This document shows, one piece after another, positions 3,131-57,322 of a stretch of DNA of 64,000 bases. The position numbers were made by a program, and so were the translations under genes. How positions within the stretch are numbered: the first letter of the stretch is position 1; the number at the start of each line of letters is the position of its first letter. This stretch comes from Escherichia coli (GTDB lineage: Bacteria > Pseudomonadota > Gammaproteobacteria > Enterobacterales > Enterobacteriaceae), in NCBI RefSeq assembly GCF_024502345.1, contig NZ_JALDNN010000001.1. One strand, written 5' to 3'. The notes under the pieces were generated by a model. The model ran no database searches. It saw only the letters and a list, made by a program, of their open reading frames with translations, and was not told the DNA's origin.

Positions 3131-4515
3131 TCAGGCAACCTTTTCAACAGGAATGTCGGCAGTAGCGCGAGTGAGCGTCATCACCGACGCCAGTTTATTC
3201 AGGGTGCTGCCCAGGGTTTGCGGAATGGCGATGGCGGCCACGAAGCGGTCCGGACGCATGACTACCAGCGCGGCGTTGTGCTGGGCAAACCACGCGCGCA
3301 GGCGGTTTTGCGTATCGCCTATGCGGGTAACGCCGTCGTGGTTATCCTGATCGGTATGTATCTGCGTATCCGGCACGACCTGGATAAAACGCGTCCCCAG
3401 CGCCTGCCACTGTTGGATCTGCGCCTCGCTCATGCCCCATAGTGGGTTACAGCCCCAGCCAATCACCGCAAAATTCGGTCCGATGACGTTGTCGAGCAAC
3501 GTCACTTCGCCCGATTCCAGCGTCACCTTCGGCTGGATAAACATCTTGCCGACCGGTGAAGTTTTCGCGTCGCCTTCACGCACCAGCGCCCCGGCGTGGT
3601 ACTGCGGCATCGGCTTAAACCGCATTTCAAGGAAGTAGCGTTTGACCGGCGGAATATAGTTCAACAGCCAGGAAACCCCATCGCGTACCGCGCCGTGCCA
3701 GCGTTTGGGCGGCGCAAGTACGTTGCCAGCGGTCACGGAGAGGTCGATCATCGCTTTGGCGTGGTCGCGGCGTTCCTGCTGGTAGGTATCCAACAGCGCA
3801 TCGTCGGCTTTACCGTTAATCACCAGCGCCAGTTTCCATGCCAGGTTGAAAGCATCGCGCATGCCGCTGTTGTATCCCTGACCCTGCCAGACCGGCATAA
3901 TGTGCGCCGCATCGCCCGCCAGCAGCACGCGGTCAATACGAAAACGTTCGGCCAGACGAGCATTATGGGTATACACGCGCTGGCGGATCAGCTCGACGTT
4001 GTCCGGGTTCGGCAGCACTTTGCTCAGTAACTGGCGCATATTCTGCGGCTCGCTAAGCTGCGCTTCGGTTTCCCCCGGCATAACCATAAACTCAAAACGG
4101 CGCACCGCGTGCGGCAGCGCGGCAGAGACATACGGGCGCACCGGATCGCAGCATAAATACACATGCGGCGTGCTGAGCGGATCGTTGGCGATATCCACCA
4201 CAATCCACTGATTCGGCGCGGTTTTACCTTCAAACGGCACGTTCAGAGAACGTCTGACGTTGCTGCCGCCGCCGTCGCAGGCCACCAGCCACTGAGCCTT
4301 CACCGTTTCACGTTGACCGTCTGGCGCTTTCAGATTTAGCGTCACTTCGCCGTTTTGTTGGCTGAAGGCCTCCAGCTCGCGGGAGAACAGGCAGCGCACG
4401 TTGGGAAAACGCGACAACCCTTCCAACATCACCGCGTCCACCTGCGGCTGAATAAACGCATTACGACGCGACCAGCCAAATTCGTCGGTCATCGGCTGGA
4501 TATCAGCAAAGCAAC
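3131..4515 (-). pseudogene. mhpA: 3-(3-hydroxyphenyl)propionate hydroxylase MhpA, 5'-truncated; about 100 N-terminal codons (FAD-binding region) replaced by IS30
   Basis: ORF begins at internal [19 protein letters not shown]; the reading frame runs directly into the IS30 left end at 4516. Confidence 0.85.
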
Positions 4516-49333: not shown

Positions 49334-50390
49334 GGCTTTGTTGAATAAATCAGATTTCGGGTAAGTCTCCCCCGTAGCGGGTTGTGTTTTCAGGCAATAC
49401 GCACGCTTTCAGGCATACCTGCTTTCGTCATTTTGTTCAGCGCTCGTACCAGGGCCATAGCCTCTGCAACCTGACCATCGTAGTCACGCAGTGTCAGTGA
49501 ACCCCCGAACAGCTGTTTTACCCGGTACATCGCCGTTTCCGCTATCGAGCGACGGTTGTAATCTGTTGTCCATTTCCACCGCGCATTACTCCCGGTCATT
49601 CGCTGATTAGCCACTGCACGGTTACGGTCTGCATATTCACCGGGCCAGTAACCCGCACCTTTTCGGGGAGGGATAAGCGCGCTGATTTTCTTACGCCGCA
49701 GTTCATCGTGACATAGCCGGGTATCGTAAGCGCCATCGGCGGCGGCTGACCTGATTTTCCGGTGGGTTTGCCGGATTAACCCGGGGAAGGCCTCTGAGTC
49801 CGTAACGTTGTTCAGCGACAGGTCAGCGCAGATGATTTCATGTGTTTTACTGTCAACGGCGAGATGCAGCTTACGCCAGATACGGCGGCGTTCCTGGCCA
49901 TGCTTTTTGACTTTCCACTCGCCTTCACCGAAGACCTTCAGCCCGGTGGAATCAATTACCAGGTGTGCGATTTCACCCCGGGTGGGCGTTTTGAAACTGA
50001 CATTAACCGACTTTGCCCGCCTGCTGACACAGCTGTAATCCGGGCAGCGTAGCGGAACGTTCATCAGAGAAAAAATGGAATCAATAAAGCCCTGCGCAGC
50101 GCGCAGGGTCAGCCTGAATACGCGTTTAATGACCAGCACAGTCGTGATGGCAAGGTCAGAATAGCGCTGAGGTCTGCCTCGTGAAGAAGGTGTTGCTGAC
50201 TCATACCAGGCCTGAATAGCTTCATCATCCAGCCAGAAAGTTATGGAGCCACGGTTGATGAGGGCTTTATTGTAGGTGGGCCAGTTGGTGATTTTGAACT
50301 TTTGCTTTGCCACGGAACGGTCTGCGTTGTCGGGAAGATACGTGATCTGATCCTTCAACTCAGCAAAAGTTCGATTTATTCAACAAAGCC
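49334..50390 (-). mobile_element. IS903-group element, copy 2, inverted relative to copy 1, with 9-bp TSD CCTTATCCC
   Basis: Same terminal repeats as copy 1; CCTTATCCC at 49325-49333 and 50391-50399. Confidence 0.92.
49390..50358 (-). CDS. IS903-type transposase (copy 2)
   Basis: 322-codon ORF with translation identical to 38097-39065. Confidence 0.92.
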   Translation of the reverse strand: MKDQITYLPDNADRSVAKQKFKITNWPTYNKALINRGSITFWLDDEAIQAWYESATPSSRGRPQRYSDLAITTVLVIKRVFRLTLRAAQGFIDSIFSLMNVPLRCPDYSCVSRRAKSVNVSFKTPTRGEIAHLVIDSTGLKVFGEGEWKVKKHGQERRRIWRKLHLAVDSKTHEIICADLSLNNVTDSEAFPGLIRQTHRKIRSAAADGAYDTRLCHDELRRKKISALIPPRKGAGYWPGEYADRNRAVANQRMTGSNARWKWTTDYNRRSIAETAMYRVKQLFGGSLTLRDYDGQVAEAMALVRALNKMTKAGMPESVRIA

Positions 50391-51152
50391 CCTTATCCCT
50401 TGGATCGAATCTCTTTCTTGGGAAAAAGATTATTCAGTTCGAGCTTCGCAATGGCTTGGCTTAATGAGAATGTTTCACCCTGATGAGCCCTCCAGTCCTT
50501 CCAGGAATGAAATGCGCTCCATATTACGAGCATTATCTGACGAGGCTCGAAATCGTTTTATTTCCTGGTTAGGATTGGTCGGGCAGAAAAACGAGAGTGG
50601 CTGGGTTAAGTATGTGATCCCATTAATCAGAGAGGACTGGCCCAAAGAACGCCAATATAGAACCACGAGCTCTGTAAAAGCATGGATTGGTTTACTTGAC
50701 GATACTGGCGATAAGTTTCCGGAGGTTTACGATTCAGTAAAAACATACTTAGTACCAATCGAGACAATTGATCATTTGTTCTACAGATTCACTCGGGAGC
50801 TCGGTGGTAAAGGAGCAATTGCAGCTATTTTTCCAGAAACCACGCTTGATTTAATGGACAAAATAACACCACTGATATTCACGCGTACATCAGGAGAGCT
50901 GCAGAAGATTCTTGAGCTAATTGAAGATACAGATACAAGTCTGATCAAGGATTCTCGGTACTTACGGCTTATTGCACTGGTTGAGAAAAATTAGCATTTA
51001 TGGTTTTTTACCGTTGTTGATTACTCAGCAACACTTTTCGACATGCCGTAGCGCTTATCGCCTGTTCTTGACTAAGATGAGAAGCAGGCGTTAAAGTTTG
51101 GTTAAAGGAGAACCTCTAACCATTCCTTCTGGAAGAAATAATCTTTGGAGTA

Positions 51153-51875
51153 TTATTGAAATTGCTCAAATATACCATGCAACCCAATAAATTTTATTTT
51201 TAGTGCAGGATCATGCCTTAGAACAGTCTCAAGTGAGTTCCGCTCATAAATTATTGATTGTGCTTGTATTGAGCCGTTCCATGAAGGCAAAAGCAGTAAA
51301 GCAGATGTTTCCAAATCAATACCCCACCAATCGTTAACATAGCAATTTAAAAAATCAACAAGAGCCTTAATCGCAATAAAAGCATCTTTTTCGGTATATG
51401 TTTCAGGATCGAGGGATATACCTGATATATTACTTTTAGCTTGCTCGGAATTAATATTAGACTGGTGTTGATAAGCAATTTTTCCTTCACCCGGTTTAGT
51501 TTCTATTGTATCAGTGAAAATTTTAATCTTAGGATGCACCAATGCATTTCGTTGTGCTATTAATTCTTTTATTATTTGTGTTTGAGTGGTTCCACGAGGT
51601 AAAGACATGTCTTTATGCCATTGAAGAGTATAGTCAAATTTATCAAGTGAAGAGAACCTGTCAATTTGATCTTTTAACTTTTGCGTTATTTCTATAGAAG
51701 ATAAAAATGAGTTAGCTGCAGCCTCAATAGCGTAGTTAATTGAAAGTACACTTGATTTGGCAAGTGTTTTTTTGATGTGTGATTTTTTTGTTGCAGCTGA
51801 TAATTCATAAAGAGTTATTGCATCAGAAAAAAGCTCAAAAAAGCTGTTCTTGGTTATTTCAACTTTTCTTTTCAC
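51153..51875 (-). CDS. P3: hypothetical ~240-aa protein with possible HEPN-type R-x4-H motif
   Basis: ORF 51153..51881; ELIAQRNALVHP contains R-x4-H; start uncertain (TTG at 51881 or GTG at 51875). Confidence 0.55.
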   Translation of the reverse strand: MKRKVEITKNSFFELFSDAITLYELSAATKKSHIKKTLAKSSVLSINYAIEAAANSFLSSIEITQKLKDQIDRFSSLDKFDYTLQWHKDMSLPRGTTQTQIIKELIAQRNALVHPKIKIFTDTIETKPGEGKIAYQHQSNINSEQAKSNISGISLDPETYTEKDAFIAIKALVDFLNCYVNDWWGIDLETSALLLLPSWNGSIQAQSIIYERNSLETVLRHDPALKIKFIGLHGIFEQFQ

Positions 51876-51965
51876 ACGCAACCCTCTGCATAAAAAAATA
51901 AAATCATATAGACAGAATACAATTTCCTATAATCTTTATATTCTACTAATTGTGGATATAAATGG

Positions 51966-53438
51966 CTATCGAGAATAAGAACTGGGTTTAGGAAAACCAC
52001 CTCTGACGACGACAACAACAATTGCAACTTGAGATTGACCTGTTGGATGAGTGAATACTTCAATATCATCCTCTATTACTCCCACCGGCGCTGATTTTGA
52101 CGTTGATTCCAGAACAACCAAAATACCGATACGCTTACCTAATCCAATGGCATAAGCTGCTGTTTGATCGAAATATTTTTGAAAATCCTTGGGAAAAAGA
52201 ACCTTATTATTTTCAACTTTTAGTTCTATCGAAATGTCTTCAAATGTGAGATCCGTTATCCCGCCAGCAGCCTCTGGATGGCCTTGTAATTTCTCGCCAA
52301 TCTCATTCCTACTTCTAAGCATTTCGGCTATTTTACGCTGAAATTTTTGCTCTGATGTGCCAGCAATAAATAAACTAGCTTTAAGAGCTTGTGCTGCAAC
52401 ATTTCCTAAGCCGCCAAGTATAACCATTGTATTAGCAATGTCATCTGAGTGTAATCCAGGGAAAGCTCGTAATATGTTACGAATTTTTATAAGATGCCTA
52501 TCGACGTTTGAAAATCCAGTTAATGGAGCTTGAGCGGAATCACTCCCTTCAAGTAGTAAGCGCCTATGTCCTACGATAGCAATATTTTGGCAATTACTTA
52601 AATTGTCAAACTCGGCAGCATATAGGAATTCGTAAGGTCTCGAGCCAAATGAATTTGCCACTTCCAAGACGACACGACCGATCCCCTTCAGTGTGAAGGG
52701 GCCTTCCCCCTCTGGTTTCTCAAATCTAAAATCAGGCAACCAGTCTCGCTCACGAGCATCAATTGTCACTGGCTTTAATGAGAGGAAATTTGCACTTTTT
52801 GGCCAATTTGAAACCCTGACCTCTATGTTAAGGTCATAAGCCGTACCCGGCTTAAGATAATTCCATTGCTGAGCTGGTTCCCCATCAATATCAAACTTTA
52901 GAAATGCAACTGTCGATTCTTGTGTTTTATTCTCTTTTGTCCCTTTACTAGATATTCCTTGCCTAATCCCCTCAATATTTTTATCGCGAAGATTTGCGAA
53001 TAAGAGTAGTGGCAATGACCAGCTTGTTAACTGGTCTTGTATTTGTTTTAATGAATCTAATTTACTGATTGAACGGACTTGCTCTATAAATTCATTAAAT
53101 TGTTTGTTCTCCGAGAGACTCGTCGTCATGTCGATCTCTGATGCTTTTAATTGTGCTGAATTTAAAAACCTTTGAGCATCAGTCTCAGCATTACGTATAG
53201 CATGTTTCCACTCAGCTAGAGTTACAAATATAGTCATTGCTATATAATATGCACGATATTGATCTTCAACATATCCCTGACCGAGCTCATCGAGCGTTTC
53301 ATTGAGCTTTTGACACGCTTCTTTAAGTTTCACCAAGTCATTCGGAATGGACTTGAGTGCACCATCCAACGCTGCTGCAATCTCAACCCTCGGAGAAAAA
53401 GCTTGGCGGAAAATCTCGAAATTTGGCTCGTTCTTCAT
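51966..53438 (-). CDS. P2: hypothetical ~490-aa protein with possible PD-(D/E)xK-like nuclease core near the C-terminus
   Basis: ORF 51966..53480; C-terminal GGITDLTFEDISIELKVEN...GILVVLE resembles a D...ExK core; any in-frame Met start overlaps the P1 3' end by at least 56 nt. Confidence 0.55.
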   Translation of the reverse strand: MKNEPNFEIFRQAFSPRVEIAAALDGALKSIPNDLVKLKEACQKLNETLDELGQGYVEDQYRAYYIAMTIFVTLAEWKHAIRNAETDAQRFLNSAQLKASEIDMTTSLSENKQFNEFIEQVRSISKLDSLKQIQDQLTSWSLPLLLFANLRDKNIEGIRQGISSKGTKENKTQESTVAFLKFDIDGEPAQQWNYLKPGTAYDLNIEVRVSNWPKSANFLSLKPVTIDARERDWLPDFRFEKPEGEGPFTLKGIGRVVLEVANSFGSRPYEFLYAAEFDNLSNCQNIAIVGHRRLLLEGSDSAQAPLTGFSNVDRHLIKIRNILRAFPGLHSDDIANTMVILGGLGNVAAQALKASLFIAGTSEQKFQRKIAEMLRSRNEIGEKLQGHPEAAGGITDLTFEDISIELKVENNKVLFPKDFQKYFDQTAAYAIGLGKRIGILVVLESTSKSAPVGVIEDDIEVFTHPTGQSQVAIVVVVVRGGFPKPSSYSR

Positions 53439-55956
53439 ATTCTTTCTCCAACTCAGCCGTAAGACCATTCCATTTTTCAATTAAGTCATTATAGGGTTCG
53501 CAAACACTTATGGCATGTTCAATGCTAGCTGCTTCTGTAACTAAAGCAGCCTTAAGTTTCCATTGTGTATTTCTTTCATCATTTGGAATTTCTTCCAGTA
53601 GTTCCTTTAAACAAACATTTGCAGTTACGTTATCACCACACTTGCTTAACGCAGCCACGTACACTAATGCTTCAATAAATTGTTGAGGTTTAAATGGTTT
53701 CAGAGCATTGAATGCTTTTTGGAGATCGTCTTTACAATTTCGAAGCTCATCATGTGGCGCTCTTAATATCACTGAGATGCAGTCATCAATAGAAATACTG
53801 CGAGTATACTCATCCTGAATTGCTTTGAGTGCGACTTTGACAAAACCGGGAATATCATCAAAATGAAAACGCAATCGATTGATAGCATCATAAAGTGCAC
53901 TTCCTTCTAAAATTAATAATATATTAGAAAGAAGCAATCCAATTTTCCCCTTTCTCTCTTCATCTGATAAGCAAAGAGAAGAAAAAACGTCAATGCATTC
54001 TACAATGAAATTATCTTTTTTATCTTGTTGAATATAATAGCAAATTAGATTCCATAGCCGGGATCTCACAAGTCCCCGTTTCTCCTCAGGAAAAGATCTA
54101 CGGCTCAAAGCGCGAACAGCATACTGATGCACCATAACATATTGATCTAATAGCAAGACTGAATATGCTTCGAAGAATAAATCTGGGAAATTCTTCACTA
54201 AATCATAGGGAACATTTTCCCACGCTTGTACGGCACGTGCTCGAATCAATGTACTCTCATCCATAAGAGCACGATACCAATCGGAGAGCACTAGTGTTAG
54301 GCTGTCAATACCAGTTAATAACTTAGAAACATGGGCAATCATGTTCCCACGCATTTGAGTTTGTTCTTCTGGTAAGCTTCTATAGAGATGAAGAAAATCA
54401 TCGATTCCTTCACTCCCTCTAGATTTAGCTCCAATCGCAGCCCATTCAATCAATGCACCCTGTAAGCCATCAATAGCATTACGCTTATTACTTTTATCTA
54501 AATGATCTAGAAAACTCTCATTTATTTCTATGATTTTTTCTTTATTCAACGCCTCAAATTTCTCGCTTAGCGTTGCAGCCGCTCCGATCAAATCGTCAAA
54601 ATTATCAACTGCAAGCTCAGCAAATTCGTCCCAAGAGTGTCTAAAGAATTGTCCTGCATCATCCATGCTATCCTCTGGATTTTCCACAGCAGCCCAGAGC
54701 AAACGCCTAAAAGCTATTTTTTGTGTCTTTCCTGTTTTACTTTTTTTTCTATAGTTATTTCGCAGTACAGATCTGTAAGCTCTATTGGCCTCATGTCTCC
54801 CAATATCATCTTTGTCAGCAAGATAGGATTGAATAACTTTATCGCTTTCATCGGGAAATCTATCTAAGTATTTCGTAGCAGCCTCCCGAAGAAAGAAAAG
54901 AATGCTGCTATCTCTCCGCTCCTCCGGGAGTAGAGTCCGTCGACGCATCAGCTTAGCAAATATACTTCTAATATGTCTTAGAAGCAGCTCATCATCATCC
55001 GATGCAATAATTATCTCAATAGCAAATTGAAATTTTCCCCGGTGAGTATCTTTTATGTATTCATCAACAACATCACAGATATCAGCTTGTCTTTTTTTAA
55101 AAAGTGACTGAATGGGGCCTTTATTAAGTACTTTTCGCTCAAATGTGCCAATCATCATTCCAGGAGGAGATTCAACAGCCATTCTAACAAAGTGGTAAAG
55201 GACTTTTAAGAAATCATCTTCAGATAGATTCTCTGCTTCCAAGAGGATTGCTTCTATAGCTAGTGGACAATATTCGAAGTTGTTTATTAAATATACTGAA
55301 ATTGCCAGTTTTTCCGCTTGTGATAATTCAGTTCTTATTAAAGCTTTTGCTGCTGGCATTGAATATGGTAATTTCTCATGTAACACTGCAGGCAACAAGT
55401 GTTCAATTATTTTACTTGTAAATGTCTCAGGTGCCAGATTAGCAAGTTGTTCCAAACGGGGATCGTTGTTCTCTATATCCTCTTGATCGAGTTCATCAAG
55501 CAAATCAAGCACAAACGTTTCTTCTAGAGTAAGTGAAAGACGTAATACTGCTCGTTCTTGTTGTCTATTGAGCTGCTTCTGCTTTCTCTGCCTTTCTTCT
55601 TCTTTGCGAGCCAAATTTCGTTCTTCGGCAGATTTTTCTCTTGGGCCTACAAACTCTAAAATATTGGGAAATCCCACCGGAACCCGTTGATTACAATGTT
55701 TACAGTTCTGTTTATAGAAGCTGTAAACCGAGTCTTCCAGCAGCCAGCTAAGCATTGAACTTTGCTTAACAAATTTGCATTGAACTCCCATGTGACCAAT
55801 GGGTAACCCTGTTTCAGCCTCAATCATGCCTCTCCCCTCTGATCGAATGAATTCAGAGTGAGAACACCAGTTACTAAGTAGGTGTACAGCACGGAGATTT
55901 CGTTGACCAGCTTCGATTGCCTCTTCAAATCTTTTTTTATCTTCAAAATCATCCAT
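53383..55956 (-). CDS. P1: hypothetical 857-aa largely helical protein with N-terminal Cys/His cluster
   Basis: ATG start MDDFEDKKRFEE; N-terminal C-x-H...C...C-x2-C arrangement (NWCSHSE...GVQCKF...QNCKHCNQ), then a basic coiled-coil and long helical region; low GC. Confidence 0.65.
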   Translation of the reverse strand: MDDFEDKKRFEEAIEAGQRNLRAVHLLSNWCSHSEFIRSEGRGMIEAETGLPIGHMGVQCKFVKQSSMLSWLLEDSVYSFYKQNCKHCNQRVPVGFPNILEFVGPREKSAEERNLARKEEERQRKQKQLNRQQERAVLRLSLTLEETFVLDLLDELDQEDIENNDPRLEQLANLAPETFTSKIIEHLLPAVLHEKLPYSMPAAKALIRTELSQAEKLAISVYLINNFEYCPLAIEAILLEAENLSEDDFLKVLYHFVRMAVESPPGMMIGTFERKVLNKGPIQSLFKKRQADICDVVDEYIKDTHRGKFQFAIEIIIASDDDELLLRHIRSIFAKLMRRRTLLPEERRDSSILFFLREAATKYLDRFPDESDKVIQSYLADKDDIGRHEANRAYRSVLRNNYRKKSKTGKTQKIAFRRLLWAAVENPEDSMDDAGQFFRHSWDEFAELAVDNFDDLIGAAATLSEKFEALNKEKIIEINESFLDHLDKSNKRNAIDGLQGALIEWAAIGAKSRGSEGIDDFLHLYRSLPEEQTQMRGNMIAHVSKLLTGIDSLTLVLSDWYRALMDESTLIRARAVQAWENVPYDLVKNFPDLFFEAYSVLLLDQYVMVHQYAVRALSRRSFPEEKRGLVRSRLWNLICYYIQQDKKDNFIVECIDVFSSLCLSDEERKGKIGLLLSNILLILEGSALYDAINRLRFHFDDIPGFVKVALKAIQDEYTRSISIDDCISVILRAPHDELRNCKDDLQKAFNALKPFKPQQFIEALVYVAALSKCGDNVTANVCLKELLEEIPNDERNTQWKLKAALVTEAASIEHAISVCEPYNDLIEKWNGLTAELEKEYEERAKFRDFPPSFFSEG

Positions 55957-57322
55957 TTAGATAACACCCTTATAAGGAACATGTACTCATCTAAAATGCT
56001 GTTACCGGATTATTATACCTAAAACAATGAATGCTGTGTATTATGAAATGTGATATAAGTCAATTAGTTACATATAAAAACCAACTCACATCCAAAAGGA
56101 TAGTATTTCGAGGTTTGTAGCATCATTAAATGTGAACTTATTTATCGCCCCCTCAAGTTAACTAATAAATAAGTTATAATTTACATATACTTCTGGAATT
56201 TAGAAACCTTATATCTAATAGTTGAGTAAGTTAATAATCAACATGAGTGTGATTCATAAAAAAAATAATTATTATTTTCAGCCCCTCCATTATGGAGGAG
56301 CAATAATAGTATAGTTTTCCTGTATTCCTAACGATCCAGTTAGGCTTAGAGAAATCTAATTATGAAGCACTCCTGAGAGCAACCCTTCCAACTTTATCAA
56401 TATAATCCGCATACCACTGCATCATCTCTCTCCTGCCTTCCAAATACAGCGCATGGTTGTACGTCCCGCGAATCGCATTCTTATCGACATGCGCAAGCTG
56501 GGTTTCAATCCATGCGGTATTGAACCCTTCCTCATGCAAAATCGTACTCATCGTGTGGCGGAAACCATGCCCCGTTACCTTCCCCGTGTACCCAATCCGC
56601 TTAAACACCTGATTAATACTCGCTTCGCTCATTGTTTTGCGGGGATCATTCCTCCCAGGAAACACCAGAGGATATTGCCCAGACATCACTTTGAGCTGCT
56701 GTACGATCTCCAGCGCTTGGGTAGAGAGGGGCACCAGGTGAGGCCGTTTCATCTTCATGCGCTCTGCAGGTATTTCCCACACCGCTTTTTCAAGATCAAA
56801 CTCACTCCAGAAAGCACCTCGAAGCTCACCGGTGCGAACCCCCGTAAGGATCAGCAAACGTGCGGCAAGAACAACCAGCGGGCTGCCTGTATAGCCAGAA
56901 AGAGCTTTAAAGAAATCTGGTAACTCCTCAACGGTAAGGAAGGGATAATGCTTCGATTCATGCCCTGACATCGCGCTGGTTAGATCCGCAGCCGGATTGT
57001 ATTCCGCACGACCGGTAACTATGGCGTAGCGAAAGACTTCGCTGCAGCGCTGGCGAACTTTCTTGGCCTTCTCTGTCGCACCACGGCTTTCCATTCGACG
57101 CAGTACATTCAACAGAACAAGAGGCTTAATTTCATTGACTGGCTGCTGACCGATATAGGGAAAAATATCTTTATTTAAAGCTTCGATAATGTCCGATGCA
57201 TACCCTTCTGACCATCTGCTCACCTTCGTACCGTGCCACTCAAGCGCCACAGACTGGAACGTATTATGATCTTACCCAGCAATAGTGGACACGCGGCTAA
57301 GTGAGTAAACTCTCAGTCAGAG

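Follow-up and report, generated by a model that had tools for sequence, protein, structure and literature searches.

oloA and oloB of an Olokun defense system in Escherichia coli share a conserved 56-nt out-of-frame overlap

We analyzed a 64,000-nt stretch of Escherichia coli DNA (contig NZ_JALDNN010000001.1 of assembly GCF_024502345.1; hereafter the window), in which two minus-strand open reading frames (ORFs), first labeled P1 and P2, overlap in different frames. The original prediction had set out three explanations for this arrangement: a genuine overlap, a non-ATG internal start for P2, or a frameshift that had split one longer gene. Judged from sequence profiles, the pair is an Olokun anti-phage system with intact oloA (P1) and oloB (P2) genes; Olokun was reportedly first described by Millman and colleagues in 2022. 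The 56-nt out-of-frame overlap is a genuine, conserved feature, neither a sequencing error nor a broken gene, and it is very probably the native junction of the two-gene operon, with oloB initiating independently within oloA. The feature is the normal, annotated architecture of a known defense system, and the conservation of the overlap and the existence of single-chain relatives are details of modest interest.

The oloA gene occupies positions 53383..55956 of the minus strand (857 aa and a stop codon). Its product ends in ...FRDFPPSFFSEG, and the TGA that follows lies at 53385..53383, where it had originally been placed. A TAA at 53483..53481 bounds the oloB frame, which is open from 53480 down to 51966. 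Three in-frame starts precede the oloA stop: a TTG at 53480..53478, an ATG at 53468..53466 and an ATG at 53438..53436. All three had been listed as methionine codons; this is correct for the two ATGs, and the TTG can serve as a start codon without encoding methionine as such. The list had also missed three non-ATG candidates beyond the oloA stop (TTG 53369, TTG 53336 and GTG 53333), all without a Shine-Dalgarno (SD) sequence. The smallest overlap from an ATG start is 56 nt, in agreement with the minimum given earlier for these two frames, and oloB is in the +1 frame relative to oloA. From this ATG, oloB spans 51966..53438 (minus strand, 490 aa and a stop codon).

The overlap itself (53383..53438, minus strand) encodes OloA residues 840-857 with the stop codon and, in the +1 frame, OloB residues 1-18 with two bases of codon 19. 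The SD core of oloB, GGAG at 53446..53449, is located 7 nt 5' of the ATG (53436..53438), within oloA codons for L-E-K-E, and the ATG is invariant in all homologs. Conversely, the oloA TGA (53383..53385) is embedded in the oloB codons for R17-V18-E19, which belong to a family motif S-x-R-I/V-E. A scan for promoters and terminators gave matches at chance level (17 found, 17.9 expected), so that the one match directly 5' of oloB, at 53516..53488, is no evidence for such an element.

In order to see how far this geometry is conserved, we compared 15 genome loci from at least six phyla (Gamma-, Alpha- and Deltaproteobacteria, Campylobacterota, Chlorobiaceae and Calditrichia), namely loci of Serratia, Yersinia, Marinobacter, Aliivibrio, Rhizobium, Dinoroseobacter, Geomobilimonas, Smithella, other Deltaproteobacteria, Sulfurospirillum, Sulfuricurvum, Chlorobiaceae and Calditrichia. 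An overlap of exactly 56 nt, an aligned ATG and an upstream GGAGAAAGA were present in 14 of the 15. A DNA-pattern scan of metagenomes yielded 15 further loci (13 distinct junctions), and the overlap was 56 nt in every one of them. The sequence TTGGAGAAAGA upstream of the oloB ATG was nearly invariant in the 15 aligned homologs as well as in the 15 metagenome loci. Taken over the clade, where protein identity goes down to 54%, 29 of 30 loci have the 56-nt overlap and no locus has fused genes. Homologs with the same overlap and separate start codons, the pattern that had been named as indicating normal coupling and not a lesion, are thus found at 29 of 30 loci, and the reading as a genuine overlap is borne out. 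The overlap is conserved to more than a chance extent. More than 100 clusters (64-98% identity) contain OloB homologs whose called length is exactly 490 aa.

The exception is the Aliivibrio locus (L016), in which an earlier TAG reduces the overlap to 50 nt. At this locus (Aliivibrio sifiae, 3277-4050), the oloA-frame ORF 5' of oloB has only 257 codons, and the oloA copy may be interrupted or decaying. In three loci (L007, L015 and L016), a stop codon closes the oloB frame only 18 nt 5' of the ATG; because of this, the window's upstream starts at 53468 and 53480 are not the family start.

The overlap is also stable within E. coli. Six complete E. coli genomes contain the whole locus at 99.9% identity, so that a sequencing error is ruled out. 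In one 99.9%-identical E. coli sequence (NZ_AP027639.1), the Prokaryotic Genome Annotation Pipeline (PGAP) annotates both coding sequences with the same start and the same 56-nt overlap, and names both products hypothetical.

Both peptides encoded by the overlap are conserved. When 13 full-length pairs were aligned by codon, pairwise third-position identity within the overlap was 0.82 in the OloA frame and 0.77 in the OloB frame, versus 0.47 and 0.46 elsewhere. A rise in both frames is what dual coding predicts. Across 27 distinct junctions, the conservation of each class of overlap sites approximately matched that of whichever of its two codon positions is the stricter. Differences per mutational opportunity were 41.5 for changes silent in OloB, 33.2 for changes silent in OloA and 12.6 for changes altering both proteins (an approximately 3-fold effect), and constraint on the two frames was roughly symmetric. 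Geometry and start and stop signals are conserved, and synonymous variation is suppressed in both frames relative to the flanks. On the OloB side, the overlap (residues 1-18) leads into helix alpha-1 (residues 7-27, codons 53358..53420, minus strand), the first half of which lies within the overlap and includes the near-invariant R17. On the OloA side, the final helix ends within the overlap and is followed by a tail of 13 residues with predicted disorder (KFRDFPPSFFSEG, residues 845-857, codons 53386..53424, minus strand), which is coil in the AlphaFold2 (AF2) model and has no counterpart in fused relatives. Codon comparisons and structure models together show here that the overlap encodes two real peptides, with both frames under purifying selection.

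The assignment to Olokun is based on profiles that cover both proteins. OloA matches PADLOC profile PDLC03925 (E-value 2.9e-77; residues 43-854 versus profile positions 17-576 of 596), and OloB matches PDLC03926 (E-value 4.2e-58; residues 8-490 versus profile positions 2-551 of 556). Pfam-A and NCBIfam contain no family for either protein (for OloA of the window, Pfam-A gave no match at E≤0.01), and OloA homologs show faint precomputed Pfam matches to Adaptin_N, HEAT and PDS5. ORF, PADLOC, AF2 and Foldseek data describe OloA as an N-terminal Cys/His-rich region followed by an ARM/HEAT (adaptin-like) alpha-solenoid. Its C-terminal 400 aa are modeled as an all-alpha solenoid with a predicted local distance difference test (pLDDT) value of 89.8; the last residues are coil at pLDDT below 50. 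Foldseek matches of the model include importin-alpha, the AP2 core (adaptin), PP2A-A and Pds5, with template modeling (TM) scores up to about 0.5. For OloB, PADLOC, AF2, homolog lengths and PGAP support a protein with a helical N-domain, a beta-sandwich and a C-terminal alpha/beta nuclease domain of the PD-(D/E)xK type (pLDDT 86.2 overall; 86-88 for the block of helix alpha-1, predicted as residues 7-27). The catalytic residues are intact: the D...ExK triad (D396...E405-x-K407 in GGITDLTFEDISIELKVE, codons 52218..52253, minus strand) is invariant, and conservation of R17 reaches at least 90% across 52 sequences, whose identity goes as low as 23%. In the window, the two genes are adjacent and co-directional with oloA first, and all 26 related loci with both genes have the same order.

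The N-terminus of OloA (window 55700-55956) contains a conserved Cys/His-rich pattern, NWC-x-H ... C-x-F/H ... N-C-x-x-C, which was recognized by eye and is common to split and fused relatives (fused P0130-P0205). Its residues suggest a putative zinc-binding module ahead of the solenoid.

Whether oloA and oloB are fused elsewhere was a question raised by the original prediction. They are, in distant relatives and in no member of the clade. An exhaustive profile-free search identified at least 479 relatives, and 23 of the 105 full-length representatives listed were fused chains of 1160-1360 aa with the OloB part at the C-terminal end. According to BLAST, the fused proteins also hold a full OloA part. 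In their alignment, the OloA body is followed by a short variable linker and then by the OloB helix alpha-1 motif F-x-x-A-F-S-S-R-x-E, and the OloA tail is a gap in all 10 fused proteins aligned. The single-chain fusions are real and collinear, since P0140 is one uninterrupted ORF (in a defense-island context) and several fused clusters have distinct full-length members from independent assemblies. On a neighbor-joining (NJ) tree of 98 representatives, the fused or split state required 19 Fitch changes (bootstrap range 16-21; about 21 with randomized tips). Fused relatives are polyphyletic and interconversion is frequent in the wider family, with the window's own clade uniformly split. The two architectures are evolutionarily interconvertible at exactly the oloA/oloB junction, which is a fusion/fission hotspot; approximately 22% of the distant representatives are fused, and these are scattered over the tree (at least 16 state changes).

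Distant split relatives keep the frame relationship. In 11 such loci (26-40% identity), the overlaps as called were 56, 17, 47, 59, 53, 35, 56, 8, 20, 26 and 4 nt. Ten of them (8-59 nt) are 2 mod 3, which is the +1 offset of the window. The oloA stop falls in the homologous OloB R-I-x codons (ATT-GAG, ATT-AAG, ATT-AGC) in L020, L022, L023 and L025, and one codon before this position in L017. A +1 position of oloB as a universal rule was rejected on account of L029 (4-nt GTGA). The stretch with both frames open measures 44-326 nt in all, and 74-158 nt in the window's clade. The most economical reading, as far as a rough tree and gene-caller starts allow, would be that the +1 overlap is old and that fusions arose from it repeatedly; repeated fission is disfavored because mixed offsets would then be expected. 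In the searchable literature, within the passages on Olokun, we found neither the conserved long overlap nor the recurrent single-chain OloAB described.

How the junction would operate follows from its layout. Ribosomes would translate oloA, the adaptin-like scaffold, to the TGA at 53383, and other ribosomes would initiate independently at the oloB ATG (53438) via the GGAG inside the last oloA codons, reading the same 56 nt in the +1 frame. The window's clade has retained this arrangement throughout its history, and most of the wider family has it too, with an overlap of variable length. With the ribosome-binding site of the nuclease inside the last codons of the scaffold, both genes would be on one transcript with no gap, and OloB initiation would be tied to ribosome traffic on oloA, on the same mRNA, in space and time. 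The OloA C-terminus would be released beside the emerging OloB N-terminal domain that it binds, an arrangement that would favor immediate assembly (1:1, or a 2:2 complex as in PfOlokun) and limit free nuclease. A 1-nt deletion (or 2-nt insertion) where both frames are open would fuse the proteins harmlessly, because the OloA C-terminus and the OloB N-terminus would be neighbors in the assembly, and such events would account for the many single-chain relatives of independent origin. That natural fusions are viable fits with termini that are adjacent in the complex. In a preprint on PfOlokun (bioRxiv 10.1101/2025.07.10.664194), the OloA and OloB partners of this studied homolog form an obligate complex; from the native operon with overlaps kept, they co-purify at approximately 278 kDa and 2:2 stoichiometry. 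Phage protection and the 2:2 OloA-OloB complex are known only for PfOlokun, from this preprint.

Several points weigh against this interpretation. Pairwise substitution counts are not phylogenetically independent, and the tree behind the fused/split history is a rough NJ reconstruction from representatives clustered at 50% identity. The deep relative L029 has an ordinary 4-nt overlap, which means that family members need not have a long one. Starts of distant metagenomic genes are gene-caller choices, some with alternatives, which makes exact overlap lengths uncertain. RNA-level and protein-level constraint are inseparable, as the sequence hardly varies, and PfOlokun may differ from the window in its overlap. 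At the window locus, the OloB N-terminus and the OloA C-terminus are deduced from conservation, and the functional rationale (coupled synthesis, no free nuclease) is inference.

A more ambitious version, in which the junction is a selected, evolvable device that combines an ancestral +1 overlap gating OloB via oloA traffic with a fusion hotspot, is tentative, and we rather doubt it. The internal ribosome-binding site may in this case be masked until oloA is translated, leading to co-translational assembly with the OloA C-terminus, and single-base deletions would have created single-chain OloAB more than a dozen times independently. In a still bolder variant, split operons would also make small amounts of OloAB fusion via unconventional +1 frameshifting.

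A hairpin in the overlap that hides the oloB SD and start until an oloA ribosome melts it would be an additional RNA-level function, compatible with independent initiation of oloB at a native operon junction, and as classical translational coupling it would contribute to the nucleotide conservation. We consider it unlikely. Two tracts directly 5' of the oloA stop, AUUUUCC and CUUUUUCUYC, are possible pairing partners of the SD (UGGAGAA). Across 15 homologs, 92-96% of cells are paired, with one compensatory AU-to-GC change in Marinobacter, and in minimum free energy (MFE) folds of the window and of L013, L017, L023 and L026, the SD/start region is paired with the stop region. However, purine-rich E/K codons opposite pyrimidine-rich F/S codons would pair by composition alone. 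The RNAalifold consensus energy is only -2.8 kcal/mol. Covariation does not stand out from shuffle controls for one helix and is marginal for the other (40/500), with 0-1 covarying pairs, and MFE z-scores range from -1.5 to +1.7 in 12 junctions (+1.1 to +1.4 in the window).

Much less probable still is programmed +1 frameshifting, by which some oloA ribosomes would slip within 53383-53480 and make an extra OloA-OloB fusion. The same +1 offset in 10 of 11 distant split relatives, the evident function of fused proteins in other lineages and the unusual nucleotide conservation would all suit such a mechanism, as would a T5 run in the overlap that permits perfect tRNA-Phe re-pairing and an SD-like GGAG upstream. 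The T5 run is absent, however, in 6 of 16 close and 7 of 8 distant loci, and no rare or hungry codon or stop is found at the T run. The search for slippery heptamers that had been proposed for this region revealed no conserved one; the canonical form (X-XXY-YYZ) occurs in 0 of 24 loci. The sense codon preceding the stop varies, and nothing resembles the prfB CUU-UGA site. None of the junctions folds more stably than shuffled sequence, dual coding alone accounts for the conservation, and PfOlokun purifies as separate co-isolated subunits, as reported in the preprint (bioRxiv 10.1101/2025.07.10.664194).

Next to no weight can be given to the view that there is no real overlap, with OloB starting at a non-ATG codon beyond the oloA stop (TTG 53369, TTG 53336 or GTG 53333) and a fortuitous open frame upstream. 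Such codons exist, and long annotated overlaps in bacteria are often start-codon mispredictions. Yet the ATG and the GGAG at 53438 are invariant, none of the three codons has an SD, and codon 24 of OloB is CTT or CTC in most homologs. All three starts would remove conserved helix alpha-1: already the first of them deletes 23 residues, which are conserved as protein, include the near-invariant R17 and form the first half of this confidently modeled helix. The homologous segment is, moreover, an in-frame part of the fused proteins. The non-ATG internal start offered by the original prediction is not supported, given the conserved ATG 53438 with its SD.

Least credible is a recent frameshift or sequencing error that split one oloAB gene and left P1 and P2 as pseudogene fragments, a reading to which the single-chain OloA-OloB of distant relatives (1160-1360 aa) and the offset of exactly one nucleotide between the two frames lend some plausibility and which the conservation data have already refuted, given the 99.9% identity in six complete genomes, the identical overlap in 29 of 30 loci of a clade without fused forms, the more than 100 OloB homologs of exactly 490 aa, purifying selection on both frames with no relaxed constraint, the conserved SD and ATG that serve oloB, and proteins that span their PADLOC profiles end to end.

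For annotation, the consequence is that this real 56-nt same-strand overlap should not be "corrected" by a start shift, nor should it be marked as a frameshift. What the deeply conserved overlap and the numerous natural single-chain OloAB proteins imply for Olokun itself is that the C-terminus of OloA adjoins the N-terminal helix of OloB in the active complex and that strict co-expression is important. Structural studies could use the natural fusions directly as constructs, as could a test of whether subunit stoichiometry controls nuclease toxicity. In evolutionary terms, the junction is a clean example of repeated gene fusion by one-base changes at an out-of-frame overlap.

The Olokun pair sits in a defense island, adjoining a Dsr1/SIR2 gene, at a tRNA-Thr integration site next to proA. 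The core-genome flank (window 58524-63311; tRNA-Thr, proA, proB, phoE, crl) is as in E. coli PSJ-29, which points to E. coli or a close relative as the source of the window. Compared with the intact island of PSJ-29, the window has its SIR2/Dsr1 gene interrupted by an IS903-like element and its integrase by an IS3, and its Olokun pair is intact. The IS903-like element (IS5 family, 1057 bp, window 49334-50390) has terminal repeats GGCTTTGTTGAATAAATC and a 9-bp target duplication CCTTATCCC. Its target is a SIR2/Dsr1 defense gene that is intact in PSJ-29 (1291 aa), and the ORF at 50302..50994 represents only the Dsr1 C-terminus. The IS3 element (1256 bp, window 57268-58523; orfA 57323..57631, orfB 57628..58494) is inserted in the tyrosine integrase of the island, leaving a 296-aa fragment at 56360..57250. 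Directly 3' of oloB, an ORF of 242 aa (51153..51881, minus strand) has no Pfam or PADLOC match. It is conserved (80-100%) only in enterobacterial Olokun islands (L001-L004). As a third gene of the system it was rejected for its restriction to enterobacterial loci, and it is probably island cargo and not a system component, because it is absent beside Olokun in other phyla. Distant Olokun loci, both fused and split (L021, L023, L024, L025 and L027), are found among other defense genes as well (AbiH, AbiEii, an N6_N4 methyltransferase with a ResIII helicase, HEPN/RES, PIN and nSTAND3), which fits with defense-island residence across the Olokun family.

Among known systems, the closest counterpart is Olokun, which PMC10121019 attributes to Millman et al., 2022. 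The window pair likewise consists of oloA followed by oloB, with an adaptin/HEAT-like solenoid in OloA and a helical N-domain and PD-(D/E)xK nuclease in OloB. Nothing essential differs; the window copy is a homolog in an E. coli island and not the experimentally tested operon. With LmuA of Lamassu and Cap4-type proteins, OloB shares the PD-(D/E)xK effector nuclease domain, and its C-terminus (residues 362-489) matches the PADLOC LmuA profile (E-value 3.3e-13). In contrast, OloB differs in its N-terminal helical domain and beta-sandwich, and the partner is the OloA solenoid and not an SMC-like LmuB; the window pair is not a Lamassu system.

The orfA and orfB genes of IS3-family elements, of which the window holds a copy at 57268-58523, are likewise overlapping same-strand ORFs with an existing fusion product. 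IS3 is said to rely on programmed -1 frameshifting, a mechanism reportedly studied by Sekine and colleagues in 1994. Its shift takes place at a defined slippery A-AAA-G (AAAAG at 57594-57598), whereas the Olokun junction would need a +1 shift and has no conserved slippery site, and the fused forms of Olokun are encoded in the DNA.

Long out-of-frame same-strand overlaps with internal ribosome-binding sites occur in phage and virus genomes and in a minority of bacterial operons. Such overprinted overlaps share with Olokun the use of two frames in one stretch, the internal ribosome-binding site and the suppression of synonymous variation. The OloA tail, the peptide confined to the overlap, is short and has predicted disorder, as is usual for peptides of overprinted frames. 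Short overlaps of 1 or 4 nt, in turn, give translational coupling. Compared with these usual coupling overlaps, the 56 nt of Olokun are much longer and are kept across phyla in a cellular defense operon, and in many lineages the junction switches to an in-frame fusion.

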